Positions 3,782 through 54,624 of a DNA stretch of 64,000 nt are shown here, piece by piece (position 1 is the stretch's first letter; each line of letters opens with the position of its first letter). Below the pieces are notes generated by a model. It was given only the letters and a program-made list of their open reading frames with translations, did no database searches and was not told where the DNA came from. A program made the position numbers and the translations under genes. Source of the stretch: an uncultured Verrucomicrobiae bacterium (lineage in GTDB: Bacteria > Verrucomicrobiota > Verrucomicrobiia > Chthoniobacterales > Chthoniobacteraceae); assembly GCA_963769025.1 (NCBI GenBank), contig CAVYKI010000004.1, positions 64,001-128,000 on the forward strand, read 5' to 3'.

Positions 3782-3804
3782 GGTCGGGCTGGACTCGGCT
3801 GGGC

Positions 3805-4509
3805 TCAAAGGCTGCGGATAATTCCGCCATCCATCGCACCAATCGCGCCAAAACGCGAGAGTTGAGCACACCACTCGATTTGATCCGTCCAGCCCCGTGC
3901 GGCGAGGGCGCGTCCATTTCGCGCGGCGCGCAGGCCGTCCAGCGGCGTGGCGAACTGCCGGGCGGTGGCGAGCGCGGATACGGCGGCGTCGGTCAGCTCA
4001 GCCTCGGGGAACTCCGCCGCGAGCAGTCCGGCGGCGATGGCATCCTCGAGGGCAAATGTCTCGAACGTCCCTGCACACACGAGCAGCACCTCGGCCGTGC
4101 GCGTGCGCGTGAGTTCGTCGCGGAGCGCGGCGAGGTTCAGCAGCGCGCCGACGAGCACGCGGCCGGCGCGCTCGCAGGCCCGGAGGGCCAGCGTGCCATT
4201 CGTGGTCGTGCTGATGATCCGCTTTCCGGCGAGCGCCGTGTATTCGAACGGATTGTTACCAAGGTCGAAGCCTTCGATGCGTTCGCCGTGCCGCTCTCCT
4301 CCGAGGAGCGCATCGGGCATCCGTTTTCGCAGCTCGATCGCCTCTTCGATCGTCTTTGCGGGGAAGATTTCCGCGGCGCCATTTGCCAGCGCGGTGGTCA
4401 TGGACGACGTCGCACGGAGGATGTCGAACACGACGCACGTCGTGGCGCTGAGGTCGCGCTCCGGCAGGCGGCTGATGTCGGCGGGGGTGAGGGCTGCGTC
4501 GAGTTTCAT
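3805..4509 (-). CDS. comB: 2-phosphosulfolactate phosphatase family
   Basis: 'VVFDILRATSS', 'LLGGERHG', 'GFDLGNNP', 'TTTNGT', 'FALEDAIAAG'; ATG 4509 overlaps upstream stop. Confidence 0.88.
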   Translation of the reverse strand: MKLDAALTPADISRLPERDLSATTCVVFDILRATSSMTTALANGAAEIFPAKTIEEAIELRKRMPDALLGGERHGERIEGFDLGNNPFEYTALAGKRIISTTTNGTLALRACERAGRVLVGALLNLAALRDELTRTRTAEVLLVCAGTFETFALEDAIAAGLLAAEFPEAELTDAAVSALATARQFATPLDGLRAARNGRALAARGWTDQIEWCAQLSRFGAIGAMDGGIIRSL

Positions 4510-38093: not shown

Positions 38094-39871
38094 GCGGCAT
38101 CGACGGCCGCGTGCTCGGTGAATTCAAGATCCTGACCAAGATCGGCCAGGGCGGGATGGGCACGGTGTACCTCGCCGAACAACCCGCGCTGAACCGCCGC
38201 GTCGCGGTGAAGGTGCTGCTCGCATCCCTCGCGAGCGATGCGGATTTTCCGAAGCGCTTCAAGCGCGAGGCCATGCTGGCGGCCAGCATCAATCACCCCG
38301 GCCTCGTGCAGGTCTATGCCGCCGGTGACATCGAGGACATCTATTACATCGCGATGGAATACGTCGATGGCGAGTCCCTGCAGCGCCGCCTGGAGCGCGA
38401 GGGCCGCATCAAGCCCGAGGAGGCGCTGGACATCATCCTCCGTCTCGCCCAGGCGCTCGACCATGCGTGGCAAAAGGTGCGCCTGATCCACCGCGACGTG
38501 AAGCCGAGCAATGTGCTCCTTTCCACCGACGGCGATGTGAAGCTCGCCGACTTTGGCATGGCCAAGAACGCCGAACTCGACAGCACGCTGACCTCGACCG
38601 GCATGCACATCGGCACGCCGCTCTACATCAGCCCCGAGCAGGCGCGCTGCCACAAGGTCCTCGATTTCAGCACCGACATTTACAGCCTCGGCTGCACGCT
38701 CTACCACATGCTGTGCGGTCGCACCCCTTACAGCGGCGAAGCGGCATTCACCGTCATGCTCCAGCACGTGACCGAACCCGCGCCGACCATCCGCACCCAC
38801 ATGCCGGAGTGCCCGCCGGCCATCGTGAAGCTGCTGGACCGGATGCTCGCGAAAGATCCCGCGTCGAGGCACGCAAGCTACGCAGAGTTGATCGAGGAGT
38901 TGAAGCTTGCGCGCGGGAACATCGGCAAGCCGCCGAAAAACCTGCGCCGCGCCCACCTCGTCGCAGCGCTAGCGACCATCGTGATCGCTGTGGTCGGGTG
39001 GTGGAGTGTCGCGAAGATGAAGGCGCCACCGGCTCCGGCGACGTCGCTGGCGGTCGCAGGATCTCTCACCCCAGCTCCGACGAAGCCCGTCGTGCCGGCA
39101 AAAGACGCGGCTTTTCTGGAGGCCGTGGCGGCGCTGCCCGCCGAGGCGCAGGCCCGGCGCGTGCTCGAGAAGCTCAAGGAGCTCAATCCTGGCTTCGAAC
39201 CGGAAAGCGCGACGTACGTGGTCCGGGATGGCGTCGTCGTCGAACTCGTGCTGAGCATCACCGCGATCAGCGATCTGGCACCTGTGCGTGCGCTCGCATC
39301 GCTTGAGCGGTTGCGCCTCGGCCAGCCTGGCCAGACCGGCGCCCTCGAAAGTCTCGAAGCCTTGCGCGGCCTGTCGCTCACCTGGCTCGAATGTCACAAT
39401 TCCCCGATCGGCGACCTCGCCCCGCTGCGCGGGATGCCGCTCACGTGGCTTGTTTGCCCCGGCGCGCACATCACCGATCTTTCCCCGCTGAAAGGCAGCC
39501 CGATCGAGGCTCTCGGGATCAATAACACAGGCGTCACCAGCCTCGAAGCCCTCGCCGGCCTGCCACTCAAATTCCTGAACTGCGGCTACAACCCAATCCG
39601 AGATCTCTCGCCGCTGGCCGGGATGCCGTTGATCGACCTGAATTGCTCCCATACCGAGGTGCGTGACCTCACGCCTCTCAAAGGCATGGCTATGACGCGG
39701 CTGATTTGCAGCCACGCTTCCATCGAGGATCTGAGCCCGGTGGCGGAGATGCCGCTCAAGGAACTGGACTGCGATTTCCGGCGCGAACGCGACGAAAAAA
39801 TCCTGCGCGCCATTCCCACGCTCGAGAAAATCAACGGCCTCGCCGCTGAGGATTTTTGGCGGAGCCTGTAG
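38090..39871 (+). CDS. Hanks-type Ser/Thr kinase with TM helix and C-terminal leucine-rich repeats
   Basis: 'GQGGMGTVY', 'HRDVKPSN', 'DFG', 'GTPLYISPEQ'; repeats 'I.DLSPL.GMPL..L.C'; ATGA overlap. Confidence 0.93.
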   Translation: MSGIDGRVLGEFKILTKIGQGGMGTVYLAEQPALNRRVAVKVLLASLASDADFPKRFKREAMLAASINHPGLVQVYAAGDIEDIYYIAMEYVDGESLQRRLEREGRIKPEEALDIILRLAQALDHAWQKVRLIHRDVKPSNVLLSTDGDVKLADFGMAKNAELDSTLTSTGMHIGTPLYISPEQARCHKVLDFSTDIYSLGCTLYHMLCGRTPYSGEAAFTVMLQHVTEPAPTIRTHMPECPPAIVKLLDRMLAKDPASRHASYAELIEELKLARGNIGKPPKNLRRAHLVAALATIVIAVVGWWSVAKMKAPPAPATSLAVAGSLTPAPTKPVVPAKDAAFLEAVAALPAEAQARRVLEKLKELNPGFEPESATYVVRDGVVVELVLSITAISDLAPVRALASLERLRLGQPGQTGALESLEALRGLSLTWLECHNSPIGDLAPLRGMPLTWLVCPGAHITDLSPLKGSPIEALGINNTGVTSLEALAGLPLKFLNCGYNPIRDLSPLAGMPLIDLNCSHTEVRDLTPLKGMAMTRLICSHASIEDLSPVAEMPLKELDCDFRRERDEKILRAIPTLEKINGLAAEDFWRSL

Positions 39872-39971
39872 CGCACCGCGTTTAGCCTCGCGCGCCGCGG
39901 TGACGGCAGATCGCAGGACGTTATTGCCGGGGTGAGCAAAGGTCTCGGTCCCGGATTCGGATCCGCCAAAC

Positions 39972-40139
39972 TTAAAACGGAGTGCGCCGGCTGGAAATCT
40001 GCGCGGCTCCGGGCGACTGAATCTGGACTCCGACGCTGCCGTGAAGAATATCGTCGTCGTGCGATCCTTGCCGGGCCGCGCAGCCGGACAGAATGAACGC
40101 AAAGCCGATTGCCACGAGGGGAAGCAACCGTTGGCTCAC
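39972..40139 (-). CDS. Small putative lipoprotein
   Basis: GTG start, hydrophobic stretch and lipobox 'LSGC'. Confidence 0.5.
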   Translation of the reverse strand: MSQRLLPLVAIGFAFILSGCAARQGSHDDDILHGSVGVQIQSPGAAQISSRRTPF

Positions 40140-40152
40140 AGCCTTTTCGCGA

Positions 40153-40581
40153 CTAGTTCTTTTTTGCGGTCGGCGCGGGTCCACCGCTCTTTTTTGCCGC
40201 CTCCCAGCGCGCTTTCATTGCAGCTGCCAGCTTTGCCCTCACTTCGGGAGACATCTTGCGTTTCTTTTTCGCTGGAGCTGCTGCTGCTTTGGGCTTTTCC
40301 GGAGCCGCGACCTTCGCCTTCGCGGCGGCTGGCGCTTTGTCGCCGGCCTTGACCTTCGCCCAACGCTTTTTCTGAGCCGCCCTGATGTTGGCAATGGCCG
40401 TGGGTGACAGCTTGCGTCGCGCGGTTTTGGCGGCCTTGGCAGGCTTGGCGGCGGGTTCTGCGACACGGGATGCTGATTGCGGCTGGCTGCCGAGAATGGC
40501 TGCGAGTTCCTTTTCGAGTGCCGCGATCTGTTCGGCGAGCTCGAGACCGCGCTGCCATTGAGAGAGGGTGGGGATATTCAT
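40153..40581 (-). CDS. Small basic Lys/Ala-rich protein (candidate nucleoid-associated protein)
   Basis: N-terminal coiled coil; two 'RK(L/M)SP....(I/L).AA.K.RW' repeats. Confidence 0.75.
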   Translation of the reverse strand: MNIPTLSQWQRGLELAEQIAALEKELAAILGSQPQSASRVAEPAAKPAKAAKTARRKLSPTAIANIRAAQKKRWAKVKAGDKAPAAAKAKVAAPEKPKAAAAPAKKKRKMSPEVRAKLAAAMKARWEAAKKSGGPAPTAKKN

Positions 40582-40678
40582 GGGGCTGACAGGTATTGCC
40601 TAACTGAAAAATAGCAAGCGGCGTTGCAAATGCCCGTGCATGGCCTTGCTTGGAGTGCGGCTGTGAAAGGAGGTTGAT

Positions 40679-41437
40679 TCACTGGGCCGTCCAGCCGCCG
40701 TCGATGACCACATCGGTCCCTGTGACGAAACCTGCATCTTCCGAGCACAGGTAAAGCGCGAGCTTCGCGATCTCCTCCGGTTTGCCCCAGCGGCCGAGCG
40801 GGATCTTTGCGAGGAATTGTTCCCGCAGCTCCGCGTTTTGCATTAGCGGTACGTTGATTTCCGTGTCGCACACGCCGGGGCTGATACCATTGACGGTGAT
40901 TTTTTCCCCCGCGAGTTCGAGCGCGAGCGCACGGTTGAATCCGAGCAGTGCCGTCTTGCTGGCTGAATAGGCGGTGCGGCCCGGCAGGGAGATGTGGGAC
41001 ATCATGGAGGTCATGTTGATGATGCGCCCGTAACCTTGCCCGGTCATCATGGGGACGAATGCGCGGCAGAGCAGAAACACGCTGGTCAGGTTGGTGTTCA
41101 GCACGCTGTTCCACTCGGCGAGTGTGAAGTCGGTGACGGGTTTGCGGATGTTGATCCCGGCGTTGTTAATGAGGATGTGCAAGTGGGCGCCGATCCGGGA
41201 GGCGAATGCATCGTGCACACCGGCGACCTGAGTTTCGTCGGTGACGTCGGCGACGAAGACCTCGGCGTTGCCGCCGTTGCCCCGAATCTCCGCGGCGACA
41301 TCATTCAGCTTCGGTCCGTCGCGGGAGACGAGTGCGACGGTCGCGCCAGCCTCGGCGAGGGCGAGCGCCATCGCCTTGCCAAGGCCCTTGCTGGCTCCGG
41401 TGATCAGTGCGGTTTTGCCGTGAAGTGGTCGAGTCAT
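40679..41437 (-). CDS. SDR oxidoreductase (gluconate 5-dehydrogenase-like)
   Basis: 'TGASKGLG', 'NNAG', 'YSASK', 'DGGWTAQ'. Confidence 0.92.
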   Translation of the reverse strand: MTRPLHGKTALITGASKGLGKAMALALAEAGATVALVSRDGPKLNDVAAEIRGNGGNAEVFVADVTDETQVAGVHDAFASRIGAHLHILINNAGINIRKPVTDFTLAEWNSVLNTNLTSVFLLCRAFVPMMTGQGYGRIINMTSMMSHISLPGRTAYSASKTALLGFNRALALELAGEKITVNGISPGVCDTEINVPLMQNAELREQFLAKIPLGRWGKPEEIAKLALYLCSEDAGFVTGTDVVIDGGWTAQ

Positions 41438-41621
41438 GGCCGGACAATACGGAGTGAACCTGCCGACGTGACACAAAAAACACGCTGGCCAGCCCGGATG
41501 CTGGCGGGCAACGTGCGGCAGTGAACGCGCCGTCGAGACAGTCCCCGCCAAGCCGGACGGTACCGGACCGCTGTGCTCCGGCCGCTTTCTGCGAGATACT
41601 CGACATCGAAAGGAGACAGCG

Positions 41622-42209
41622 GTGTCCGAACTCCTAGTCAGGGATCGCTGGTATGCGCTGATCGTCGCCGGGCCGAGCGGCTCGGGAAAGAGCGTGGTGG
41701 CCGAGCATGTCGGGCGGGAGCTCAGCCTGCCGGTGATTGATGCCGACGATTACCATAGCCGGGAAGCGGTGGAGCTCATGAAGCGCGGGACGCCGCTTGC
41801 GGACGAATATCGCGAGAGTTGGGCGGAACGCATCATCGGCGGGATGATCGCCTGGCGTCGGCGCGGTGAGAGCGTGGTCATTGCATGCTCGTGCATCCGC
41901 CGCCGCACGAGGGATCGTTTTCGCACCTATGTGAACGAGGCGCGAATCGTGGGCGGTCAGGTGGTCATCGCATGGCTGGATGTATCGCCGGAGGTGCTCC
42001 GGACGCGCCTTCTGCGCCGGGAGGAGGAGCAGACGCACTTCTTCCCTGCGTCGCTGCTTGGCTCTCAGCTCAATGCCGCGCAGCCCCCGGATCCGCAGAG
42101 CGAACCCGGGGTGATACGGATCGCAGTCGGACCGGAGGCGCCCGACGCTGTCGCTCGAAAGGTTTGGGAATCCGTACCGGCACTTCATCCATTCGTTGCC
42201 CGCGCCTGA
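41622..42209 (+). CDS. Gluconokinase (GntK/IdnK type)
   Basis: 'GPSGSGKS', 'DADDYH', 'G.PL.DE.R', 'IACS', 'HFFPASLL.SQ'. Confidence 0.82.
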   Translation: MSELLVRDRWYALIVAGPSGSGKSVVAEHVGRELSLPVIDADDYHSREAVELMKRGTPLADEYRESWAERIIGGMIAWRRRGESVVIACSCIRRRTRDRFRTYVNEARIVGGQVVIAWLDVSPEVLRTRLLRREEEQTHFFPASLLGSQLNAAQPPDPQSEPGVIRIAVGPEAPDAVARKVWESVPALHPFVARA

Positions 42210-42351
42210 CACCGCGGTGGTCAAACGCACGAGGAGGGGCGGATGCCATCAGGAACCGTCTGGATGAGTCCAGACGGATGCCTTCACCCACACATGGGGA
42301 CTGCGACTTCCGGCGCGTCAGAATGTACGGCTGCGGCCGAAGGACTCCGCG

Positions 42352-43026
42352 CTAGCTTGCCAGGCGGTAGTGTCCCGGGCCGACCTTCTTGATATCCTTG
42401 AAGTTCTTGCCGGTGGTCGAAAACCACACAAACAGGTTGCGGGGGTTCATGCCAAATTGCTTCGCGAGATCACCGACGCGGGCACCGTCCTTGCCAGCGG
42501 CCTTCAGCGCGTCCTGAATGCCCGCTGACAGCTCACCGCGCTTGGATCCGACGGACTTCAGCGCCTTGGGAGCCGCCTTCGCAGGCGTCGGGGCCGCAGG
42601 CGCCGCGGCGGGCACGGGTCCGACGAGGCGGTAGCGGCCCTTTCCAGCCTTGCGGATCGCGGGAATGGTCTTCCGCGCAAATTGAAACCAAGAATGAAGG
42701 GCTTCGGGCTTTGCGCCAAGTTCCGCCGCAAGGTCCCGCACACGCATGCCGGCTTTTCCGGCCGCGCCCAGCGCTGCGAAGATGCGTCCTTTCAATTCAC
42801 CCCGCGGGGCGCGTCCCGGTGTCACTGCCGGGGCCGCTTTGCCCGCGACCGGCGCGGCTTTTTTCGCGACCGGAGTCGCAGCGGTCACTCCGCTGTCGGA
42901 AAATAGTGCGTTCTTGATGCGTTCCAGGCGGGCCAGCACTTGATCGAGCTTGCCTTGCAAGGCGGCGCGCTCTTTTTCAATGCTCATTGCTTCTTTGAAC
43001 AGGTCGATTCGGGATGGTGAGGACAT
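42352..43026 (-). CDS. Coiled-coil plus tandem winged-helix-like DNA-binding protein; start approximate
   Basis: Two ~62-aa repeats 'RGEL...I..AL.AAGK.G.RV.DLA...G..P..L..WF.......I.K.G.G.YRL'. Confidence 0.7.
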   Translation of the reverse strand: MSSPSRIDLFKEAMSIEKERAALQGKLDQVLARLERIKNALFSDSGVTAATPVAKKAAPVAGKAAPAVTPGRAPRGELKGRIFAALGAAGKAGMRVRDLAAELGAKPEALHSWFQFARKTIPAIRKAGKGRYRLVGPVPAAAPAAPTPAKAAPKALKSVGSKRGELSAGIQDALKAAGKDGARVGDLAKQFGMNPRNLFVWFSTTGKNFKDIKKVGPGHYRLAS

Positions 43027-43180
43027 AGGGCTGGATGCTTCATCCATACTCCCGATATTCTCAAGTATTATCTTGCTAGCGTCAGATTGCGGCACGTCTG
43101 GTGGCTTGGTGTGCGCGGACGGCGGAGCGGGCTTCCTGCCCGCGGGACAAGTGCCTTCCCGGATGTGGATCACGATTCCT

Positions 43181-43208
43181 TTGCAAAAACCTCCGCCAGC
43201 GCTATCGT
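43181..43208 (+). promoter_or_regulatory. Putative sigma70 promoter of the L,D-transpeptidase gene
   Basis: TTGCAA-N16-TATCGT, 11 nt before ATG 43220. Confidence 0.35.
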
Positions 43209-43219
43209 CCCCAGCCTCT

Positions 43220-43792
43220 ATGGAAAAACGAAACTTCAGCAGCCTGATTCTTGCCCTCGTTGCAATCGGCGTGCTCGCTGGGTGCGCAACAAAACCGCCG
43301 CCGCCGCCGCCCACGCCAACCCCTGCCAAACCCGCTCCGCCCTATACCTGGAATGACACCGGCGCCACCGGCGACCCGAGGATCGTGGTGAACGTCTCGA
43401 GGCAGCGAGCTTACTTCTTCCGCGGGAACGAATGTGTTGGCGACACGCGGTGCAGCACGGGCAAGAAGGGTTTTGCAACGAAGCTCGGTGCTTATGCCGT
43501 GACGCAAAAGAACAAGGACCATGTCTCAAATCTATACGGCAACTTTGTCAACGAAGCGGGAGAGGTCATCCAGCGCGACGTGGACATGAGCAAGATGCAG
43601 GTTCCGGAAGGCTGTTCGTTCCAAGGTGCGAAGATGCCATACTTCATGCGCTTCACAGGCGGATACGGGCTGCATGCCGGAAAAGTGCCGAACTACCCTG
43701 CGTCGCACGGTTGCGTGCGGCTCCCGCGGGTGATGGCGGAGCGCTTCTTCGTGAATAGCAGGATCGGCACGCCAGTCCTGGTTGAAGAATAG
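43220..43792 (+). CDS. L,D-transpeptidase (YkuD) lipoprotein
   Basis: Lipobox 'LAGC', 'MPYFMRF', 'GLHAG.VP.YPASHGCVRLP'. Confidence 0.92.
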   Translation: MEKRNFSSLILALVAIGVLAGCATKPPPPPPTPTPAKPAPPYTWNDTGATGDPRIVVNVSRQRAYFFRGNECVGDTRCSTGKKGFATKLGAYAVTQKNKDHVSNLYGNFVNEAGEVIQRDVDMSKMQVPEGCSFQGAKMPYFMRFTGGYGLHAGKVPNYPASHGCVRLPRVMAERFFVNSRIGTPVLVEE

Positions 43793-44193
43793 GCGGCGCT
43801 GGGGGCGGAGTGCCACGTCCTCGCGCCGTGCCGGCTTGGACGGACGCCGCGAGCGGGTGAAGGCCGACGGGCGCGATGCGGCGGGGCTGTGCCAGCGGCT
43901 GTCGCGCTTTGTGAACGGCAACCGCAGGGAACTGGCTGTCATCAGCGTGGAACGTGGCGCGAATCCGCAGCCTGACCGGCACTCGGTCCGCACGAAGTGC
44001 GACGCCATATTCGAGCGGAGCGAGAAAGACTGGCCGCAGGCCAGCCCGGAGGGTGACGCCGGGAGGCGTCATCAAATTGGACCGCGCCCCGTTCCGCTTC
44101 ACCCGCCGCATCCGTCATACGGTGCTGTCCGCCCTGCGGCCAGGCTCAACTCAGTTCACCAAACTTCCATCTTCACCACTTTCATAGGGGGTG
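43793..44193 (+). pseudogene. Degenerate IS110-family remnant (transposase fragment plus structured non-coding tail)
   Basis: 'ALGAECHVLAP' then frameshift to 'RERVKADGRDAAGLCQRLSRFVNGN..ELAVISV' (KxDxxDA motif); ends at the trailer of the adjacent cassette. Confidence 0.6.
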
Positions 44194-44203
44194 GGCGTTG
44201 CGG

Positions 44204-44731
44204 TCATTCGGGATTAAGTGCTGCGATAGCTGCCTCATGCAGCCACGCGCGCTGATAATGCTCGGCGTAGTAAGCGGAAATATTGTCGTCGCCGCGATTG
44301 AGGTTGCGTCGCTGCGCCTCCTCGATGTCGCAGGTGATGCCCTGCATCTCGACGCCGTTGCCGATAGCGCGCATGGCGTCGATGAGTGCCTTGGTGGGCT
44401 CGAAGTCAGAGCCGATAAGCTCGGTGACGATGTGCCGTCGCTCGTCGATGGCCTGGCTCGCGATGATCGGTCCGATAACGTCGAGAAACTCTGCGAAAGG
44501 GCCGGGAAAGTCGAAATACTCGCCACGGCTGAGACTGAGAAACACCTCGGCGGCGTCCACGAGAACATAGCCGGACGAAAAGCGTTGCTTGCGGACGGTG
44601 GTCTTGCCGGCGGCGGGGCCGCCCATGAGGATGACAATGCGCGGCTGAGTGCCGTTCGAGAGTGATGAGTCGTCGAAGTAACGGTCAATCTCGGCACTGA
44701 TGTCGAACTGGAAGACGCGTTCTTCTGGCAT
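44204..44731 (-). CDS. Gene cassette: P-loop kinase-like protein (zeta-toxin/AAA_33-like)
   Basis: 'PRIVILMGGPAAGKTT', 'VLVDA.E', 'EEAQRRNLNR'; preceded by core GTTAGCC. Confidence 0.7.
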   Translation of the reverse strand: MPEERVFQFDISAEIDRYFDDSSLSNGTQPRIVILMGGPAAGKTTVRKQRFSSGYVLVDAAEVFLSLSRGEYFDFPGPFAEFLDVIGPIIASQAIDERRHIVTELIGSDFEPTKALIDAMRAIGNGVEMQGITCDIEEAQRRNLNRGDDNISAYYAEHYQRAWLHEAAIAALNPE

Positions 44732-44754
44732 GGCTTTCAGGATGCGCGAGCAAC

Positions 44755-44796
44755 GGCTAACGCACCCAAGCTCAGCGACCACGGAGCGGTTCGCTG
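44755..44796 (-). other. attC site, distal half (end of L'', central stem, L', R')
   Basis: Minus strand CAG-C-GAACCGCTCCGTGGTC-GCTGAGC-TTGGGTGC-GTTAGCC. Confidence 0.85.
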
Positions 44797-44865
44797 AGTC
44801 GCCGTTAATCGTGGGGTGAACATTGCTGCGGAGCGTATCGCTTCGCAGTGCGAAGATCAAATCCC

Positions 44866-46040
44866 ATGAAGACGAAACTCCAACCCAAACCACCAACCAA
44901 GAACCCGAAGTATTCCGTCTATGCCGCCCTCGATTTGCACAGCGCCCGCAGCGTGCTCGGCGGCATGGACCATGACGGGAACGAACTCGGCCAGTCCCGG
45001 TTCCCGACCGATGCCGAACATCTCACGCAGGCCGTGCGCTCCCTGGGCGGCACCGGCGTGTGCCTGACCATGGAGGCCAGCTCGCTGACCCGCTGGGCCG
45101 CGGGGCTGGTGCGGCCACTCGTCGAGCGGCTCGTCATCTGCGAGCCGCGGCGCAACCGGCTCATCGCCGAGGACCCGAACAAGAATGACGGGCAGGACGT
45201 CACCAACCTGTGCTTGCTTCTGCGCATCAACCGGCTCAAGGAAGTCTGGATGGGCGACGACCGCCAGCGCCAGATCCACCGCGAACTGGTCTATGAACTC
45301 CTGAACTGGCGCGACGCCCAGCGCGAACTCAAGGCGCTGCATCAAAGCCCGCTACCGGCAGTGGGGCGTGCTGCGCGTGGAGGGCACCGGCGTCTTTTCG
45401 CGCACGCAACGCGAGCGTTATCTCAGCCAGCTCCCCGGCGAGGAGGAAAGGAGGATGCTGCTGCGCGTCTATGCCCAGCACGACCACGCCATCGACCAAT
45501 GGAAGAACACCCTGCGCGAAGTGCTGCCGCGTGGGCCGCCAGTTCTGGGAGGTGGGCGAGTTCAAAAAGATCCCCGGCATCGGCATCATCGGCGCCCACG
45601 TCTTCAGCGCCATCATCGAGGACCCGGCCCGCTTTGCCACCCGGCAGAAGCTCATGAAGTATGCGCGGCTGGCGATCACCGGTCGCAGCAGCGACGGCAA
45701 GCCGCTGGGCTACGAACGGCTCGAACGGCGCGGCCACCGCGAACTCAAGACGCTGAGCTATCACGCCTGGCGCACCGCCTGCCGCAGCACCACGCGCGAC
45801 AACGCCGTGCAGCGCTTCTACCGCGCCAGCCTCGAGCGCACCCACGACGTGCGCCACGCCCGGCTCAACACCCAGCGCAAGATCCTCGCCGCCATGTGGC
45901 GCATGTGGCTCAAACGCGAGGCATGGAAGCCCGAACTCTTTTTCACAGCCACCGACCCGGACGCGACCGCGACCGGGCGAAGCCAGCCTGAGAACGCCGG
46001 CCCGCGTAAAGAGGCACCGCCTCACGCGGCTCAGGGTTGA
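44866..46040 (+). CDS. IS110 DEDD recombinase/transposase, two frameshifts (~45340, ~45525)
   Basis: 'AALDLH', 'MEAS', 'KNDGQD', 'IPGIG', 'RF.TRQKL..YA.L', serine loop 'SSDGK', 'RRGHRELK'. Confidence 0.9.
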
Positions 46041-46044
46041 CGAC

Positions 46045-46320
46045 CCCGGCGTCCGCAGCGCAGCGGACTGGGAAAACGCCGGCCGCACACACCCGGCCAT
46101 GCGCTTGGGCGGTCTCGATTCAAGGGGGGAACTGCCCCCGCGGGCCCAGCCCCGATTCGCATGAATGGTGCGGCCGGCGACATTTCCGCCAGTTCCCCAA
46201 GGATGACCCTGGGCGGCCAAGTCAGCAAGTCAGCAAGCTAATAAGCTGACGAGTTAGCAAGTGAGCACAAAGGCCAGCTTCCAAAGCCTGCATGGAACCC
46301 CGACACGTCATCGCAGTCCG
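46045..46320 (+). ncRNA. Candidate bridge/seekRNA of the IS110 element; ends approximate
   Basis: Perfect 12-bp stem 46077-88/46168-79 enclosing an internal loop with CCATGCGCT (46097-105), the reverse complement of target 46481-89; AAAGCCTG (46283-90) identical to IS right end plus core. Confidence 0.65.
46219..46266 (+). repeat. Six degenerate tandem 8-mers in the IS right end
   Basis: aagtcagc aagtcagc aagctaat aagctgac gagttagc aagtgagc. Confidence 0.75.
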
Positions 46321-46476
46321 CCGTCCCGCCGCAGACGCCCGTCCCGCCAGCACCCCAAAGGCACTCCGCCCATCACATCGCCCGGACTCCGGACGACAAA
46401 CCCCGATAGTCATCAAAGAAAAATGACGCCACTAACGGGGCGCGTCCCCCCATGCTTTTATGACTTGATTAAAAGC

Positions 46477-46495
46477 CTGCAGCGCATGGTTCGGC
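46477..46495 (-). other. attC site, proximal half (R'', spacer, L'')
   Basis: Minus strand GCCGAAC-CATGC-GCTGCAG, 34 nt after the SnoaL cassette stop. Confidence 0.85.
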
Positions 46496-46529
46496 GTTGC
46501 GGTCACTTGGGATTTTTGCGTCGCGTCGC

Positions 46530-46856
46530 TCACGGAACAATGCGCAATCTCGCGATTTTGCCGTCTCGAAGTGTGAAGGTGTAGTGAAGCGGAATCGGAC
46601 TTCCGGGAAAATTGCCGCTGACGGTGGCGGTAACGACCGTATCGTTACCCGCATGTGACAGGTCGGTTACTTTGGCAATTGGTTTGGCTTCCGCAGTGGC
46701 GCGTTCAATCCATTCTTTGATGGCGGTGCCGCGATGATCCTTTGATTCATCGGTGACGTGGGCATCGGCGGTGAACAGCGAGAGGAAATCTGCAAACTCT
46801 CGTGTGTTGGTGGCGTGGAAGAAGGCAGCGATAACCGGTGGGAGTAATACGTTCAT
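46530..46856 (-). CDS. Gene cassette: SnoaL/NTF2-like protein
   Basis: 'F..DA.V.DE', 'VSGNFPGSP..L.Y.F.L.DGKI..L.I'; flanked by GTTAGGC core and attC. Confidence 0.85.
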   Translation of the reverse strand: MNVLLPPVIAAFFHATNTREFADFLSLFTADAHVTDESKDHRGTAIKEWIERATAEAKPIAKVTDLSHAGNDTVVTATVSGNFPGSPIPLHYTFTLRDGKIARLRIVP

Positions 46857-46921
46857 GGCTTTCTTGTGGATGTTAGTGTCGAGCGAATTCTTGTTCGTTC
46901 TGTGGTGGAAGCGCGAGCATC

Positions 46922-46945
46922 GCCTAACATTTTGATTGAGCCGCA
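46922..46945 (-). other. attI-like recombination site
   Basis: Minus strand GGCTCAATCAAAAT-GTTAGGC: perfect GTTRRRY core preceded by an A-rich tract, without an attC L' box. Confidence 0.55.
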
Positions 46946-47296
46946 GGGGTGCGGCATATCCACGCGATCTAAATGCGGCATTTGCGGAGTGGAGCGGGGG
47001 CGGTTTACTCGGGCAAGCGGAAGTTTTTCCGGCTGCTGGAGGCCGTCGGCGCGGGGTGGAAGGGTCGTCGCGCTCGGCTCGTTCGGTGTGCTTGTTTCGA
47101 TCGTGCAGGTTAATCCGGCCCGCACGCCCGACACCGTCCGCGAAACTGACGCGGGCTCATTGGTCGGGTTTCCGGGAGCGTGTTTGGATTGGGGTTTGCG
47201 TGATTTTCGGAACGTCTGATTCCACCGGCTCCCGGCCGGCGCATGGGCGCGCTTTTTTTACTCGCACCGGGAGGGCGAAGCGTTTCGAGTCGGAGC

Positions 47297-49303
<2,007 letters not shown>

Positions 49304-49378
49304 GTCCTTTGTGCAAAGGTGGTGCATCGGTACCACCGCTTGAGCATTTGGGAGTTCTGGACCATCGTTCGCGCCAAC

Positions 49379-50389
49379 ATGAAACGTCTCGCGCTGTACC
49401 TCCTCCTCGCAGTGGCCCTCCTCGGTGTCTCCCAAGCCGTCATCAAGCGCGACTCGATGGACGTGCTGCGCGAAAGCCAGGAGGCATTTGAAAAGCGCGA
49501 CTTTGACCGCGCGGCGAAGCTCCTCACGGAGGCGATCGAGGCGAATCCCAAGCTGGTGCCCGCCTACGTGCTGCGCGGTCTCGCGAATGCCTCGCGCAAC
49601 AGGTTCGACGACGCGATCGCCGACTACTCGAAGGCCATCGAACTCGCGCCCGAGGACGAGCGCCCGCGGCTGCTGCGCGCGGCGATCCACCAGATCCGCA
49701 AGGAATACGACAAGGCGATCGCGGACCTCGATTTCGCGCTGAAGAAGGAGCCTGGAAACTCGGAGCTGCTCGCGACGCGCGGAATCTGCCGCGCGCAAAA
49801 GGACGACGACGAGGGCGCGCTGAAGGACTTCGATGCCGCGGTGAAGGCGGACCCGAAGAACGTCCATGGCTGGCAGCTCCGCGGCTCGGCCTACTCGGAG
49901 AAGGGCGAAAAGGACAAGGCGCTCAGCGATTTCAAGGAGGCCATCACGCTCGACCCGAACAACGCCGCGACCTATCTCTACCGCGCCCACCTTTACCTCG
50001 TGGAATCCGAGCCGGAATCGGCGCTCTCGGACCTCGAGGAAGTGATGCGCCGCGCGCCAGATTTCCCCGGCGCGGCCAATGACTACGCGTGGACGCTTGC
50101 GACAAACCCGAAGGACTCCGTGCGCAACGGACACAAGGCCGTGGAGTTCGCGAAGAAGGCCTGCCACGAGACGGACTACAAACACGCGCCCACCGTGGAC
50201 ACGCTGGCCGCGGCCTACGCCGAGGCGGGCGATTGGGAGCAGGCGGTGAAGTGGCAGCAGGAAGCCATCACGCTCGCTGAGAAAACGCACCCGGACGACG
50301 TGAAGGGCATGAAGGAGCGGCTCGCGCTCTTTAAGGAAAAGAAGCCCTTCCGCGAAGTGCCCGTGCGCGACAGAAAGCCGAAGCCGTAG
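49379..50389 (+). CDS. Secreted TPR-repeat protein
   Basis: Repeats 'AIADY.KAIEL.P'; 'AW.LAT.P...RNG.KA', 'DTLAAAYAE.G'. Confidence 0.9.
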   Translation: MKRLALYLLLAVALLGVSQAVIKRDSMDVLRESQEAFEKRDFDRAAKLLTEAIEANPKLVPAYVLRGLANASRNRFDDAIADYSKAIELAPEDERPRLLRAAIHQIRKEYDKAIADLDFALKKEPGNSELLATRGICRAQKDDDEGALKDFDAAVKADPKNVHGWQLRGSAYSEKGEKDKALSDFKEAITLDPNNAATYLYRAHLYLVESEPESALSDLEEVMRRAPDFPGAANDYAWTLATNPKDSVRNGHKAVEFAKKACHETDYKHAPTVDTLAAAYAEAGDWEQAVKWQQEAITLAEKTHPDDVKGMKERLALFKEKKPFREVPVRDRKPKP

Positions 50390-50409
50390 GCGGCTGGCTC
50401 GCCTTTGTT

Positions 50410-50554
50410 AAACGCAGAGACGCAGAGACGCGGAGGGAAATGCAGTCGGGATCAGAGCCGCGTTGATGAGGGGCCGCAGTGTGGCTTCCGCGGTGCGACG
50501 TCGTGCATTTTCAAAAGCTGTCTCTTACCTCTGCGTCTCCGCGTCTCTGCGTTT
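50410..50554. repeat. Inverted repeat built from ACGC(A/G)GAG units between convergent genes
   Basis: AAACGCAGAGACGCAGAGACGCGGAGG 50410-36 versus CCTCTGCGTCTCCGCGTCTCTGCGTTT 50528-54. Confidence 0.8.
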
Positions 50555-50598
50555 TCCCATGTCCATTCTTTGCGCAAGTCGGGCTGGGCAGCCCGAAG

Positions 50599-51597
50599 TC
50601 ACGCCTCCACCGGCACGAGCTTTGCGACTTCCTCCACAAGGCCCGGGACGCTGAGGTTCTCCGCGAGGCCGTCGTAGTTCAGCAGGACGCGGTGCGCGAG
50701 GACTTCGGGTGCGAAATGGCGGATGTCCTCGAACGCGACATGCGCCCGACCTTCCGCGAGCGCACGCACGCGCGCGGCGCGGATGAGCGCCTGCACGGCG
50801 CGCGGCGATGCGCCCCATTTCACGAATTTCCTCACCGTGTCGCCGCTCTCGGTCGCCTCGGGATGCGTCGCGAGGACGAGGCGCACGGCGTAGTCGCGCA
50901 ACGGATCGGCGACGACGACTTTTTCGAGCACGGTGCGGAGTTCCATGATGCGGTCGCCACTCATGATGCGCGGAACGTCCGCGTTGCCGCCGAGCGTGGT
51001 GCGGCGGACCATTTCATTCAGCTCGGCGCGGTTGAGGAAAGGGACGTTGAGCTTGAACATGAAGCGGTCGAGCTGCGCCTCGGGGAGCGGATATGTGCCT
51101 TCCTGTTCGAGCGGATTCTGTGTCGCGAGCACGAAGAACGGCGGGCGCAGCACGTGCGTCTGCCCGCTGGCGGTGACGCTTCCTTCCTGCATCGTCTCGA
51201 GCAGCGCGGATTGCGTCTTTGGCGTCGCGCGGTTGATCTCATCCGCGAGCAGGAGCTGCGTGAAAATCGGCCCGCGTCGGAACTCGAACTGGTAGCGCCC
51301 GTCCGGTCCCGCGCTCATGACCGTGGTACCGATGATGTCCGCCGGCATGAGATCGGGGGTGAACTGGATGCGGCGGAAATCGAGGTCGAGAGCGCGTGCG
51401 AGCGTCTTCACCAGCTCCGTCTTGCCGAGCCCCGGCACGCCTTCGAGCAGCACGTTGCCGCCAGCGACGATCGCGGTGAGCACGCCGTCCACGACGCGCT
51501 GCTGCCCGACGATGACGCGCCCGACGCTGTCGCGCAGCCGCTGGAAGTCATCGCGGAATCGTTGTGCTTCGGCCTGGAGTTGTGCGGTGTCGGACAT
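50599..51597 (-). CDS. moxR: MoxR AAA+ ATPase
   Basis: 'EGVPGLGKT', 'RIQFTPDLMPADI', 'DEINRATPKTQSALLE', 'YPLPEAQLDRF'. Confidence 0.95.
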   Translation of the reverse strand: MSDTAQLQAEAQRFRDDFQRLRDSVGRVIVGQQRVVDGVLTAIVAGGNVLLEGVPGLGKTELVKTLARALDLDFRRIQFTPDLMPADIIGTTVMSAGPDGRYQFEFRRGPIFTQLLLADEINRATPKTQSALLETMQEGSVTASGQTHVLRPPFFVLATQNPLEQEGTYPLPEAQLDRFMFKLNVPFLNRAELNEMVRRTTLGGNADVPRIMSGDRIMELRTVLEKVVVADPLRDYAVRLVLATHPEATESGDTVRKFVKWGASPRAVQALIRAARVRALAEGRAHVAFEDIRHFAPEVLAHRVLLNYDGLAENLSVPGLVEEVAKLVPVEA

Positions 51598-51621
51598 GGG
51601 TGTGGGTCGGTTGATTGTGGA

Positions 51622-54600
51622 TCACTTCTCGCCGTCTTGTCGCTTCCGTTTCCGTGCGAGGAGGCGCTCGGTCGTGGATTGCTGATCGTCGGCAGCGGCG
51701 GGTTCGTCGGGTTTCGGCTGTGGCTTTGAATCGGGATCGGCGGGCCGCGTGACTCCGCCTGCCTTCGCCGGAAGGATGACGGGCTTCGGTCGCTCGGCGG
51801 GCATGGTGGCGGCCTGCACTTCCTTTTTGCGCTGAAGGAGCGCGCCCATCGTCTCAGTCGAACCGGCTTTTCTGCCGAATCCGAACCAGCCTTTGATCAC
51901 CTGCCAGTCGAGCTGCACGCGCCGCAACCCGACATCGAGCGGGATGAGGCACGCGAGCGCGATGAGGAACCAGTCGAAGACCGGCCGCGAGCTTTCGCGC
52001 GTCGAGCGTGGCGGATGAAAGAGGTCGATGTCGGAAGGCGACAACACGCGGCCGCCGGTGCGCTCGGCGATTTGTTTCAGCGCGATCGGGTTGCTTTTGA
52101 AGCGCAGGTATTCCGGCGAATACGGCACGGCGAATCCGCCGAACGCCTGCTCGTTGCGCTTCACCGTCTTCTCGCCTGTGCCACTGATGCCCACGCCGAC
52201 GGCGGCGACCTGATACCGGCCTTTTCCCGAGAGCGGAAATTCGCCCTGGTACCGCCGCGGTGCGACTTGCTTCAGCGGCACTTCGAGCGTCTCGCCGCGC
52301 GGACCGCTCACGCGCGCCTTCAGTTCGAGGAAGCTCTCGACCTTTGCGAAATCCTCGACGGTCACGATGCCCTGGCTGCCGGACGCAAATGCCGACATCG
52401 TGAGATCGCTGCGCTGCTCGACGCGCGACACTTCGGTGGCGAGCTGCTTCACGAATGCGCGGTATTTTTCCCAGCCGACCCAGTCGCGCGCCCAGTTCGG
52501 CGCGAGGTCGCTCGTCCACGCGGCGGTCGTGCCGAGGCCGTAACGCCACGTCGCGAGCACGGGGTCCGGCGAATCGCCCGCGGCTGTCTCCTGGGCGTCT
52601 GGCGGCGCCTTGAGGACGACGCTCGCGCGAGGCTTCGGCGTCGTGAGCACGAAGCCGTGCAACGGCGGCAACGCGTCGATGCCCTTGAGGATGGGCGAAG
52701 GGAATTCGACCTGCGCGCTGAACGTCTTGTTCTGCAGCATCGAGCGCTTCAGCGTCTTCGCCTCCTTAATGAAAATGCTCGGGAGCTGTGACGGGTCCTG
52801 CGGGTAGTAAAAGCGGCCGCCGGTCTTCTGCGCGATGCCTTCCATGAGGTCCACCGTCTGGCCGCCGTGCGGATTGATCGCCACGGTGGAGACCGTGATT
52901 TTCTCCGCGAGAAACTGATCGAGCAGCGCGGGTTGCGGCGGCGCGGGATCGCCGTCGGAAATGATGATGCAGTGCTTCATCGCCGCGTCGCTCGCCTTCA
53001 GCCCCGTGAACGCCATGGACATGATGTTGTGAAATGCCGGCATGTCCTCAGGGCTCGCGGCGTTGATGAGCGGGATGAGTTTCGTCTCGAACTGCTTCGC
53101 CTTCGTGAGCGGGAACACCCACTGGTCGCCCTTCACGAGTTCGAAATCGAGCAGGCCGACTTCGTCTTCGCCGCCGAGCACGCGGATGGCTTCCTTCGCG
53201 ATGCGCTTCGCCCACGTGTTGCCCTCGGCGAACTCGCAGGTGTGCAGGATGATCGCGAGCGCGCCTTTTGGCAGCACCTTCTTCTGCGTCACGTCCATCG
53301 TCACCGGCAGCGCGTCCTCGACGACGCTGCGGTGATAGCCGCCGGGGCCGAATGTCTGGGAACTGCCGAGCATGATGAAACCGGTGCCCTGATTGTACAC
53401 CGCATCGTGCAGCGCCTGTAGTTGCACGGCGTCGAAGCCGTCGGCGGGCGCGTTCGGGATGATGATGAGATCGTACGGCAGCAGCGAGAGCGGGTCGCGC
53501 GGGAACTCGTACGCCATGCGCACCTGCACGATGCGCTCGCCCTGCTTGAGCGCGGCGACGAGCGATTCCCAATCGCGCGCATCGCCGCGGGCGTCGGTGA
53601 CGACGAGCACCTTGCCCTCGCCTTTCAAAAACAGGTCGCCCATCGCGACATTGTTCTCCGCCCACGAGTCGTCGCCCTTCGCGGTCTCAATGGTCGCGAC
53701 GTACTCGTAGTAGCCCGGCCCCCGCTGCGGCAGCGGCAGCGAGAAGCGGTTCTTCCCCGCCTGATACTCGACCTCCCTTTCGAAGATGTTCTTCCCGTTC
53801 TCGGCGAAGCGCAGCTTGCCCTTGCCGGCCTGCAGCGAGGAAAGCAGCACGGTCGCCTCGTAAGTCTCGCCCTGTTTCACCACGCGCGGGAGGTCCAGCC
53901 GTTCGAGCCAGACCTCCTTTGCAAAATCAAACGCCACCGGCAGCACATCCACCGCGACGCCGCGCGATTTCAATTCATCGAGCACGGCCGTGACGTTGCT
54001 GTCCGTCTCGTTGCCGTCGGAGATCACCACCACGCGCCCCTGATTCCCCTCCGGCAACATCGCCGCCGCGAGGCTGAGCCCCTTCGCGAGGTCCGTGCCG
54101 TCGCGGTTCACGCGGGAATTGATTGTTTCAAAAGGGAACGACTTTCGCGGCGGCAGTTCCACCGCCGCGTCGCTGCCGAACACCACCAGGCCCGCCTCGT
54201 CCTTCTCCGGCTTCTGCGCGACGGATTTCAAAATCCACTCCATGGACTTGTCCGAGATTTTCTCGCCCATCGAGTCCGACACATCGAGCGCATAGACCAT
54301 CGAGAGCGTGTCCGACTTGCGCACCGCGCGCGGCTCCGCCAGCAGCGCTGCGAACGTGCCGACGAGCAGCAACCGCGAGATCAGCGCCGCCTGCGAGCGC
54401 CACCCGCTCAGCCCGCTCCAACCTGCAAAGTGCATCCACCAGATCCACGGCGTCGCGAGCATCAGCCAAAACGCCGGCTTCCACGTGAACCGCACCAGCC
54501 CGCGCAGCTCGCAAACGATCGCTGCGGTCGCGAACACCGCCAGAAACACAAGCAGCGGCAGCAGCGCGAGCAGCGTCACCGGACGTCGTGCGGTCGGGAA

Positions 54601-54624
54601 GAAACTCTGGAGGACGCGCTTCAT
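51622..54624 (-). CDS. Membrane protein with two VWA-like domains and a GATase-like domain
   Basis: MIDAS 'DVSDSM', 'VISDGNET', 'GPGGY', 'IIISDG', 'LATWRYGLG..AAWTSD'. Confidence 0.85.
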   Translation of the reverse strand: MKRVLQSFFPTARRPVTLLALLPLLVFLAVFATAAIVCELRGLVRFTWKPAFWLMLATPWIWWMHFAGWSGLSGWRSQAALISRLLLVGTFAALLAEPRAVRKSDTLSMVYALDVSDSMGEKISDKSMEWILKSVAQKPEKDEAGLVVFGSDAAVELPPRKSFPFETINSRVNRDGTDLAKGLSLAAAMLPEGNQGRVVVISDGNETDSNVTAVLDELKSRGVAVDVLPVAFDFAKEVWLERLDLPRVVKQGETYEATVLLSSLQAGKGKLRFAENGKNIFEREVEYQAGKNRFSLPLPQRGPGYYEYVATIETAKGDDSWAENNVAMGDLFLKGEGKVLVVTDARGDARDWESLVAALKQGERIVQVRMAYEFPRDPLSLLPYDLIIIPNAPADGFDAVQLQALHDAVYNQGTGFIMLGSSQTFGPGGYHRSVVEDALPVTMDVTQKKVLPKGALAIILHTCEFAEGNTWAKRIAKEAIRVLGGEDEVGLLDFELVKGDQWVFPLTKAKQFETKLIPLINAASPEDMPAFHNIMSMAFTGLKASDAAMKHCIIISDGDPAPPQPALLDQFLAEKITVSTVAINPHGGQTVDLMEGIAQKTGGRFYYPQDPSQLPSIFIKEAKTLKRSMLQNKTFSAQVEFPSPILKGIDALPPLHGFVLTTPKPRASVVLKAPPDAQETAAGDSPDPVLATWRYGLGTTAAWTSDLAPNWARDWVGWEKYRAFVKQLATEVSRVEQRSDLTMSAFASGSQGIVTVEDFAKVESFLELKARVSGPRGETLEVPLKQVAPRRYQGEFPLSGKGRYQVAAVGVGISGTGEKTVKRNEQAFGGFAVPYSPEYLRFKSNPIALKQIAERTGGRVLSPSDIDLFHPPRSTRESSRPVFDWFLIALACLIPLDVGLRRVQLDWQVIKGWFGFGRKAGSTETMGALLQRKKEVQAATMPAERPKPVILPAKAGGVTRPADPDSKPQPKPDEPAAADDQQSTTERLLARKRKRQDGEK

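Follow-up and report, generated by a model that had tools for sequence, protein, structure and literature searches.

The IS1111-attC target group of insertion sequences (IS) is said to have been named by Tetu and Holmes in 2008 and by Post and Hall in 2009. The guide RNAs of such elements have since been characterized: according to the relevant sections of Siddiquee et al. (2024; PMC11187229), the seekRNA of IS1111-type elements has its place downstream of the transposase gene and is recovered when the transposase is purified, and transposition depends on it. In an IS1111-type seekRNA, as set out in the same sections, the match to the top strand of the target lies 5′ of the match to the bottom strand, and the attC-targeting ISKpn4 and ISPst6 fit this scheme, as does ISPa25 by prediction (PMC11187229). 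Parts of Durrant et al. (2024; PMC11208160) state that for 93% of IS1111 elements the right end is predicted to hold a bridge RNA and that in many IS1111 elements the donor nucleotides lie in a multi-loop, and the bridge-RNA mechanism of IS621 is treated in sections of Hiraizumi et al. (2024; PMC11208158). Here, a stretch of 64 kb from an uncultured Verrucomicrobiae bacterium (contig CAVYKI010000004.1), hereafter the window, was analyzed; all positions refer to the whole stretch. An IS110/IS1111-type insertion sequence of 1.68 kb was found at 44797-46479, and we consider it likely that positions 46063-46321 are the seekRNA or bridge-RNA gene of this RNA-guided element and that the element occupies an attC-like site within a small cluster of gene cassettes. 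The observations comprise the boundaries of the element, a conserved fold with compensatory changes, loop strands tracking each element's own flanks and a donor segment tracking its own right end. They support the natural, attC-programmed guide that an earlier note on this DNA had proposed, and the position of the RNA downstream of the transposase in IS1111, which that note had mentioned, is indeed reported in PMC11187229. The concept of an attC-programmed guide is itself not new, since the sections cited of PMC11187229 describe it for ISKpn4 and ISPst6.

Searches for the element, the RNA and sequence motifs were run inside the window, and the features described below lie on the plus strand unless stated otherwise. 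Related loci were collected by a genome scan with an alignment of 27 transposases, which returned 20 loci (numbered with the prefix L), mostly from metagenome-assembled genomes (MAGs) of Verrucomicrobiota, plus single Burkholderiales and two Acidobacteriota bins. An additional locus, L021, a Klebsiella plasmid with a class 1 integron in which an IS110-family element lies in the attC of the last cassette, was added for comparison. The transposase has 657 protein relatives, some of them 80-88% identical. A blastn search (distant mode) of a plasmid collection with the whole element gave no match.

The element is bordered by CTG at both junctions (44794-44796 and 46477-46479). Directly upstream of the insertion lies the left part of the interrupted attC-like site (GGCTAAC ... 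GGTTCG, 44755-44793), which reads GGCTAAC...GGAGCGGTTCG up to the left core copy CTG (44794-44796). After the right core copy follows the right part of the same site, CAGCGCATGGTTCGGCG (46480-46496), containing the core-site-like GTTCGGC at 46489-46495. The relatives share this layout, with conserved ends and with attC sites as flanks, GCCTAAC...GGTTSG / CTG on the left and CTG / CAKCGNNTGGTTAGR on the right. The short left non-coding end of the window element (44797-44865, 69 nt) starts with AGTCGCCGTTAATCG and carries TTAATC, the inverted partner of GATTAA near the right end; its motif CTGAGTCGYCRTTAAT has a single occurrence in the window and is conserved across 14 elements. The right-end motif CTTGATTAARAGCCTG is likewise found a single time in the window. 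The right terminus CTTGATTAAAAGC, together with the right core copy (46464-46479), occurs once in the window, found a match in 0 of 100 shuffles and is conserved in 15 elements. Between the stop codon of the transposase gene, which ends at 46040, and the end of the element at 46476 or 46479, the non-coding right end measures 436-439 nt, in agreement with the 436 nt given in the earlier note. An uninterrupted site matching the window target reads GGTTCG-CTG-CAGCGCATGGTT. In the related loci, 18 empty sites of the form GTTSG-CTN-CAKCG..TGGTTAG were found (in L002, L004, L006, L010, L012, L013, L017, L019 and L020), with a cassette-array-like spacing and all on the strand of the occupied sites. 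Because such uninterrupted sites occur in related loci, the element boundaries are fixed. Inside the window, a search for the reconstituted empty site with up to three mismatches found none. The insertion into attC has one orientation, since attC-like flanks are shared by the window element and its relatives and the cassette-like open reading frames (ORFs) lie on the opposite strand.

A core of 3 nt, as initially proposed, holds for the CTG duplication of the window but not across the relatives, where the third base varies. As the left core copy, 13 of 14 elements have CTG and L008 has CGG; as the right copy, 12 of 15 have CTG and the other three (L014-L016) CTT. Among the 18 empty sites, CTC was found in 12, CTG in three, CTT in two and GTG in one, so that mostly CTC stands where occupied sites have CTG. 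As the third base varies, the certain core is CT, and the third base would be either selected for or supplied by the element.

At the left terminus, one base differs in the conserved terminal motif: positions 44797-44812 read AGTCGCCGTTAAT in the window and AGTCGTCGTTAAT in the nearest relatives L001, L011 and L012, the difference being GTCGCC in the former versus GTCGTC in the latter. At the other end, an A-run invariant among relatives (46395-46445) is flanked by apparent small hairpins (GTCAT...ATGAC in the window); a hairpin around this run (~46410-46440) was considered and set aside, since RNAalifold on the MAFFT alignment predicted 0 pairs.

The putative guide-RNA domain occupies 46063-46321, where an outer stem P0 (46063-46070 / 46314-46321) encloses a target-binding arm and a donor-binding arm. 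Its conservation was assessed with a covariance model, R1 (220 model positions), built from an alignment of seven similar Verrucomicrobial sequences with the window left out. RNAalifold gave P0, P1, P2, P3 and P5 on this seven-sequence alignment, and P4 was added by hand. In a search of the window and all 21 loci (169,875 bases, both strands), R1 found 20 matches, all of full length, all on the transposase strand and none in L021. The window match (46059-46327; 57.8 bits, E=4.1e-14, model positions 1-220 of 220) is the sole match in the 64 kb on either strand. Over 19 distinct sequences, 85.7% of 679 alignment cells pair, compared with 60.3% after shuffling and 29-47% with slid partners. Two-sided changes occur in 33 of 41 pairs, and each of the five measures was attained by 0 of 500 shuffles. 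Taken with the R1 match, this indicates that the fold is conserved in homologous right ends, as the earlier note would have predicted.

The conservation extends to each of the stems. In P0 (GCGGACTG 46063-46070 / CAGTCCGC 46314-46321), 98.1% of the cells are paired and all six pairs change on both sides. The target arm starts with P1 (GGAAA 46071-46075 / TTTCC 46183-46187), paired in 78.8% of cells with two-sided changes in six of eight pairs, and continues with P2 (CGCCGGCCGCAC 46077-46088 / GTGCGGCCGGCG 46168-46179), paired in 94.0% with the same proportion of two-sided changes (6/8). The inner hairpin P3 (46106-46148, with its base formed by TGGGC 46106-46110 and GCCCA 46144-46148) is variable in length and sequence among relatives; its two helices, numbered 4 and 5, are paired in 87.1% and 80.0% of cells, and seven of seven pairs change on both sides. 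The donor arm is closed by P4 (helix 6; GATGAC 46202-46207 / GTCATC 46307-46312), with 74.6% of cells paired and two of six pairs changing on both sides. From alignment rows read by eye, P4 is GGTGAT/ATCACC in L008, L014 and L016 and ATGAT/ATCAT in L009 and L003. Hairpin P5 (helix 7; 46211-46280, GGGCGGCC / GGCC-A-GCTT) is paired in 81.2% of cells, with changes on both sides in all six pairs. All the strings named in the earlier note are present where it had placed them. Of the long stem that it had drawn, P2 and GGAAA/TTTCC are conserved with two-sided changes, whereas the extension ACTGG 46067-46071 / CCAGT 46189-46193 exists but is not conserved in relatives and competes with the conserved outer stem P0.

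Two of the loops have features of their own. The P5 loop (46219-46271) is about 53 nt long in the window versus roughly 5-25 nt in relatives, and in the window it contains four copies of the octamer AGTNAGCA, namely AGTCAGCA twice, AGTTAGCA and AGTGAGCA. The strands of the target-arm loop (46089-46167) can pair mutually, CAUGCG with CGCAUG in the window and CCAA with UUGG in relatives, and in several relatives the 5′ loop strand is a perfect 12-nt palindrome, CCAATCGATTGG. As long as the RNA is unbound, its target loop may be kept partly closed.

Several results weigh against a guide-RNA fold. The pair counts come from an alignment fitted to a hand-drawn structure and, since the sequences are moreover related, the covariation figures lean toward that structure. 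Folding of single sequences gave modest z-scores of -2.0 and -2.2. When the raw MAFFT alignment of 18 right ends was folded with RNAalifold, 0 pairs were predicted, because the variable hairpins are misaligned there. A scan of 44000-47000 against Rfam at E<=1 returned no family, and a promoter scan found no promoter-like site. The terminator scan gave one terminator-like site, below the shuffled mean of 2.2. On the other side stands a check that does not depend on any alignment, in which the 5′ and 3′ sides of the outer stems (the strands of P1 and P2) bind better within an element than between elements, a result reached in 0 of 20000 permutations overall and in 1 of 20000 in Verrucomicrobia. 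Besides, the minimum-energy fold of the window sequence contains P0-P4.

The same stems might be thought to act as single-stranded DNA hairpins at the end of the element, in the manner of folded attC sites, given that the target site itself works as folded single-stranded DNA and that the stems are G+C-rich. However, G-U pairs are frequent and kept in the stems, with GU in seven sequences at one P1 pair and UG in five at one P2 pair; therefore, the structure is tied to the transposase-sense strand, the other strand of which would have C-A mismatches. R1 is also without a match on the opposite strand, and a two-armed structure of 260 nt downstream of the gene is the arrangement of the known seekRNAs, as given in the sections cited of PMC11187229. 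Folded DNA is accordingly held to be a very improbable explanation, and the fold is treated below as that of an RNA.

In the internal loop of the target arm, the 5′ strand (46089-46105) contains the putative right-target guide CCATGCGCT (46097-46105), which is the exact reverse complement of the right flank AGCGCATGG (46481-46489), and is therefore complementary to the top strand at +2 to +10 right of the core, as the earlier note had described. Chance was estimated within the window by shuffling the whole non-coding right end 2000 times; 37 of these shuffles attained a right-flank complement of 9 nt. In the 14 elements with a right flank, the longest exact complements measure 11, 9, 9, 8, 8, 8, 8, 5, 5, 5, 5, 5, 5 and 3 nt, and foreign pairings mostly give 4-5 nt. 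The guide has 9 nt in L012, as in the window. That of L001 has 11 nt and a changed sequence, with CAATGGCGCTG in the loop and CAGCGCCATTG in the flank (window, CCATGCGCT / AGCGCATGG).

The candidate left-target guide on the 3′ loop strand is TTCGC (46156-46160); after it come A and then TGAATG (46162-46167), the latter being invariant in 18 aligned sequences. TTCGC is identical to the target left of and into the core (44790-44794), again as proposed, and the 3′ strand can be written TTNGC, that is, the last four flank bases followed by the first core base. In 10 of 14 elements, this pentamer agrees fully with the left flank of the same element, as against 66 of 182 foreign pairings. L001 is changed on this side too, both in the loop and in the flank (TTCTC). 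Own and foreign pairings were compared further through duplex energies, with 20000 permutations of flanks or ends among elements. The value observed for own flanks was reached by three permutations on the right and six on the left, which is in line with loop segments that track each copy's target.

Part of these data can also be accommodated by a structure that guides nothing, i.e., a 3′ untranslated or terminal element with another role (in mRNA stability, in termination, or as a platform for the transposase at a DNA or RNA end), in which case the flank matches would come from similar attC sites and shared end motifs. In the window, the left match is no better than chance, a 5-nt left-flank identity being reached in 1997 of 2000 shuffles; TTCGC is thus without weight on its own. 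The cognate matches are imperfect in many relatives: the exact right-flank complement is only 5 nt in six of 14 elements and 3 nt in one, and the left pentamer is mismatched in four of 14 (L002, L013, L004 and L005). Flanks are alike everywhere, so that foreign pairings score well too, some right-flank ones reaching 10 nt. Moreover, the permutation signal is weak in the reduced set (the Verrucomicrobial subset alone; without the window's clade), at 438 and 919 of 20000, and the permutations overstate independence because element clade and host attC type are related. Against a structure without guiding stand L001, which changed both loop strands along with both flanks, and the advantage of own over permuted flanks. 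A further point against it is the order and arrangement of the matches, which are those shown experimentally for IS1111-type seekRNAs in the relevant sections of PMC11187229.

Regarding the four copies mismatched on the left, three (L002, L013 and L004) have in the same genome a sibling that carries a matching RNA, as seen for L002 and L013 (one MAG) and for L004 and L010 (one MAG). In L002 and L013 the left-guide matches are exactly swapped; L005 is without such a sibling. These sequence relationships suggest that guide RNAs may act in trans among sibling copies.

The donor arm provides a second set of matches. Its candidate donor segment, AAAGCCTG(CA) at 46283-46292, lies on the long 3′ strand of the donor loop and repeats, in the same sense, the element's final 5 nt and the core. 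The earlier note had pointed to AAAGCCTG in a second domain closed by GATGAC/GTCATC, and indeed 46283-46290 equals 46472-46479, the right end plus core. The identity runs over 10 nt, AAAGCCTGCA, a length reached in 5 of 2000 shuffles. The note's own caution that its short matches were individually weak is justified for the 5-nt left match. Between the donor pentamer and the right end of the same element, agreement is complete in 15 of 15 cases, versus 66 of 210 foreign pairings, with the haplotypes AAAGC, AGAGC and AGAAC. As AAAGC and AGAAC each form one clade on the transposase-gene tree, the covariation represents at least two co-changes; this also tempers the argument, since it amounts to about two events, not fifteen. 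A structure that guides nothing would have to explain this complete agreement through two co-changes.

Such a structure finds some support at the other end of the element, for which no guide was found. A complement of the left end shows no covariation with the element's own left end, 10764 and 16499 of 20000 permutations reaching the observed values, which counts against a complete guide. The sole recurrent left-end complement, CCCCA / TGGGG, is an exact 5-mer in eight of 14 elements, shifted in L012 and L017 and missing in L008. A role of the P4 5′ strand (GAUGAC) in reading the left end GTCGTC via a G-U pair was also considered and is unsupported by the left-end permutation tests. On balance, an element without guiding function is judged improbable, and a guide RNA that reads the target and the right end of the element is the reading retained here.

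Whether this guide still directs anything in the window depends on the transposase. The gene of this IS110-family protein (44866-46040) is broken and spread over three frames (44866-45339, 45341-~45523 and 45525-46040), a point that weighs against a functional system at this locus. With the full-length relative P0001 as query, tblastn gave three pieces in three frames (the last at 45525-45998), with identities of 87%, 76% and 89%. The frame breaks lie near 45340 and 45524, neither of them inside a homopolymer run. Because of these two frameshifts, and unless they are assembly errors, the window copy is unable to make its own transposase, and its transposase gene is probably dead. At the protein level, the C-terminal piece of the window is matched by PF02371 with 48.2 bits (cut-off 21.3) and, like the N-terminal piece, by NF033542 ("IS110 family RNA-guided transposase"). 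On the 88%-identical P0001, NF033542 covers positions 1-343 of 343 (E=2.2e-25) with 89.5 bits, below its cut-off of 140. The DEDD domain model PF01548 reaches 17.6-17.7 bits, below its cut-off of 29. The candidate DEDD positions D23, E70, D108 and D111 are invariant or nearly so among the 27 relatives, all of which also keep S275 and D276; in the alignment with the L021 transposase, the counterpart of SSDG is SSG. A search of the Protein Data Bank with the profile of the 27 relatives found no solved structure at E<=0.01. Judged from these matches, the protein is a member of the IS110 family, but a divergent one.

It follows that the RNA gene may be genuine and the window copy nevertheless a fossil whose guide directs nothing any more. 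Besides the three frames of the transposase gene, the base difference at the left end from the three nearest relatives (GTCGCC for GTCGTC) points in this direction, as does the lack, within the window, of a second copy to supply transposase. However, the RNA domain scores over its full length against R1 and its guides match their own flanks exactly, the frameshifts could be assembly errors, and sibling copies elsewhere in the genome could act in trans, as the sibling RNA matches of L002/L013 and L004/L010 illustrate. The chances of a fossil appear to us evenly balanced, and at best the window copy would be mobilized in trans.

For the lineage as a whole, a mechanism can be proposed in which ISEc11/ISKpn4 and IS621 serve as the models from which transcription of the RNA, its binding by the transposase and the chemistry are inferred. 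Transcription would take place together with the transposase gene or downstream of it, and the RNA would fold into the outer stem P0 enclosing two arms. In the first, target-binding arm, made of P1-P2, the internal loop and hairpin P3, the 5′ loop strand (CCAUGCGCU) would pair with the attC top strand at +2 to +10 right of the core, and the 3′ loop strand (UUCGC, A, UG) with the bottom strand of the left flank and core. In the second, donor-binding arm, made of P4, an asymmetric loop and hairpin P5, the segment AAAGCCUG, which has the same sense as the right end plus core, would base-pair with the circle junction on its bottom strand. Recombination between the excised circle and attC sites at the CT(G) core would follow, carried out by the putative DEDD/serine transposase in complex with the RNA.

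The surroundings of the element are consistent with a cassette-like context. On its left lies a cassette-like ORF on the minus strand (44204-44731), P-loop kinase-like, with partial Pfam matches to Zeta_toxin (3.6e-07) and CPT (1.9e-06). On its right, also on the minus strand, lies a second cassette-like ORF, SnoaL-like (46530-46856; Pfam SnoaL_2, 8.1e-10). Both are thus on the strand opposite to the element. Among 12 neighboring ORFs tested (38969-54624), none was an integron integrase or tyrosine recombinase; the locus is therefore described as a small attC cluster rather than as a demonstrated integron, and the attC-like cluster of the window seems to be without a nearby integrase. Its neighbors include a YkuD L,D-transpeptidase, a short-chain dehydrogenase and a large VWA-domain protein. 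A second IS110-like remnant at 43782-44255, an impression gained by eye, was unconfirmed by Pfam, BLASTP or NCBIfam. In relatives, cassette arrays can carry multiple copies or ends: L002 has two copies about 1 kb apart (1197-1571 and 2534-4097), L015 has extra left ends (1330 and 6129), and L011 (1-110) has a second right end with the flank CAGCGCATGGTTCGG, the same as that of the window.

Compared with the described systems, the element would work like IS1111 and IS1111-attC elements, yet it is filed under neither. Two IS1111 traits are present: the long non-coding region lies downstream (436-439 nt, versus 69 nt upstream), and the complementary segment 46097-46105 lies 5′ of the same-sense segment 46156-46160, following the rule given in the relevant sections of PMC11187229. 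Three others are absent. The subterminal repeats measure 6 bp in the window element and, in most of its relatives, 5 bp, whereas PMC11208160 gives 7-17 bp. Most of the relatives listed have 354-392 amino acids (aa), with a profile of 370 positions for the 27, versus 330-350 aa according to the sections cited of PMC11187229. The GL-P----S(T)G motif given there is replaced by a region reading LAITxRSSDG, without its G and P. Because of the short repeats, the longer proteins and the RSSDG motif, the element is not placed in IS1111 in the narrow sense.

The IS1111-attC group (ISPa21/ISPst6/ISKpn4 type) was compared through one clinical example, L021, which is taken as IS1111-attC because of its position and its 13-bp subterminal repeats. 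ISKpn4, ISPst6 and ISPa25 share with the present element an RNA downstream of the transposase gene, a top-strand match that comes first and attC as a target (PMC11187229, in the sections cited), and L021 shares with the window an orientation opposite to the cassette genes. Judged by this one example, the element shares with the group neither the insertion point nor a related transposase or RNA. The transposases are 24% identical over 213 aa, and NF033542 scores 298.7 bits on L021 versus 89.5 bits on this lineage. Likewise, R1 finds this lineage in 20 full-length matches and not L021. The junction of L021 is TGAA / TTGTTAGC, 2 nt from GTTAG, whereas this lineage has CTG and 9 nt before GTTCGGC, and so inserts 7 bp further from the attC core. 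The subterminal inverted repeats are 13 bp in L021 versus 6 bp in the window (TTAATC / GATTAA). Finally, the target matches of L021 lie 6 nt apart without a hairpin, whereas those of this lineage are split by a 43-nt hairpin.

Full-text literature searches, with ISfinder outside their scope, found no published description of this lineage and none of attC-directed bridge RNAs beyond the 2024 papers. The finding is considered real and its interpretation supported, as a distant, undescribed lineage of an established kind of system. It adds a well-supported natural guide RNA and its target rules for a recombinase lineage that standard models barely recognize, NF033542 and PF01548 scoring below their cut-offs and Rfam giving no family. 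It also suggests that guide-RNA targeting of attC is not confined to clinical IS1111-attC elements and extends to another attC position, in chromosomal cassette arrays from the environment; the stability of these arrays and the expression of their cassettes may be influenced by such elements. Such targeting would represent a second, possibly independent, route of RNA-guided elements to the integron attC. For tool development, a divergent recombinase-RNA pair with readable guide positions becomes available. The principle dates from 2024, so that known work is extended and not overturned, and a specialist would not be surprised. A broader scenario joins these points and is offered as a tentative one, doubtful as a whole. 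A deep-branching IS110-like lineage, common in soil Verrucomicrobiota, would have independently become a parasite of integron cassette arrays, reading another stretch of attC than the clinical IS1111-attC group does (the conserved core-site side and ~9 nt). In this scenario, the RNA would read both halves of the target and only the right-end half of the donor, the left end being recognized by the protein via the short inverted repeat, and the RNAs would act in trans among siblings.

Outside IS1111, the closest parallels are with IS621, as far as parts of PMC11208160 and PMC11208158 describe it. Both RNAs have a target arm and a donor arm, one strand in each arm would read the left half via the bottom strand (same sense), the other target strand would read the right half via the top strand, and a short CT-containing core and a DEDD plus serine recombinase, here a putative one, go with both. 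In contrast to the IS621 described there, the RNA lies here in the right end and not in the left, the order of the strands is reversed, and an outer stem closes both arms. The donor loop is also strongly asymmetric here (~3 nt vs 26 nt), and a right-donor guide was not found by permutation. A different kind of parallel is offered by the group IIC-attC introns, which, according to parts of PMC3001079, are likewise a mobile lineage inserting specifically into the attC sites of cassette arrays. These introns are retroelements with a ribozyme and a reverse transcriptase, whereas the present lineage would reach attC sites with a putative DEDD transposase and a guide RNA.

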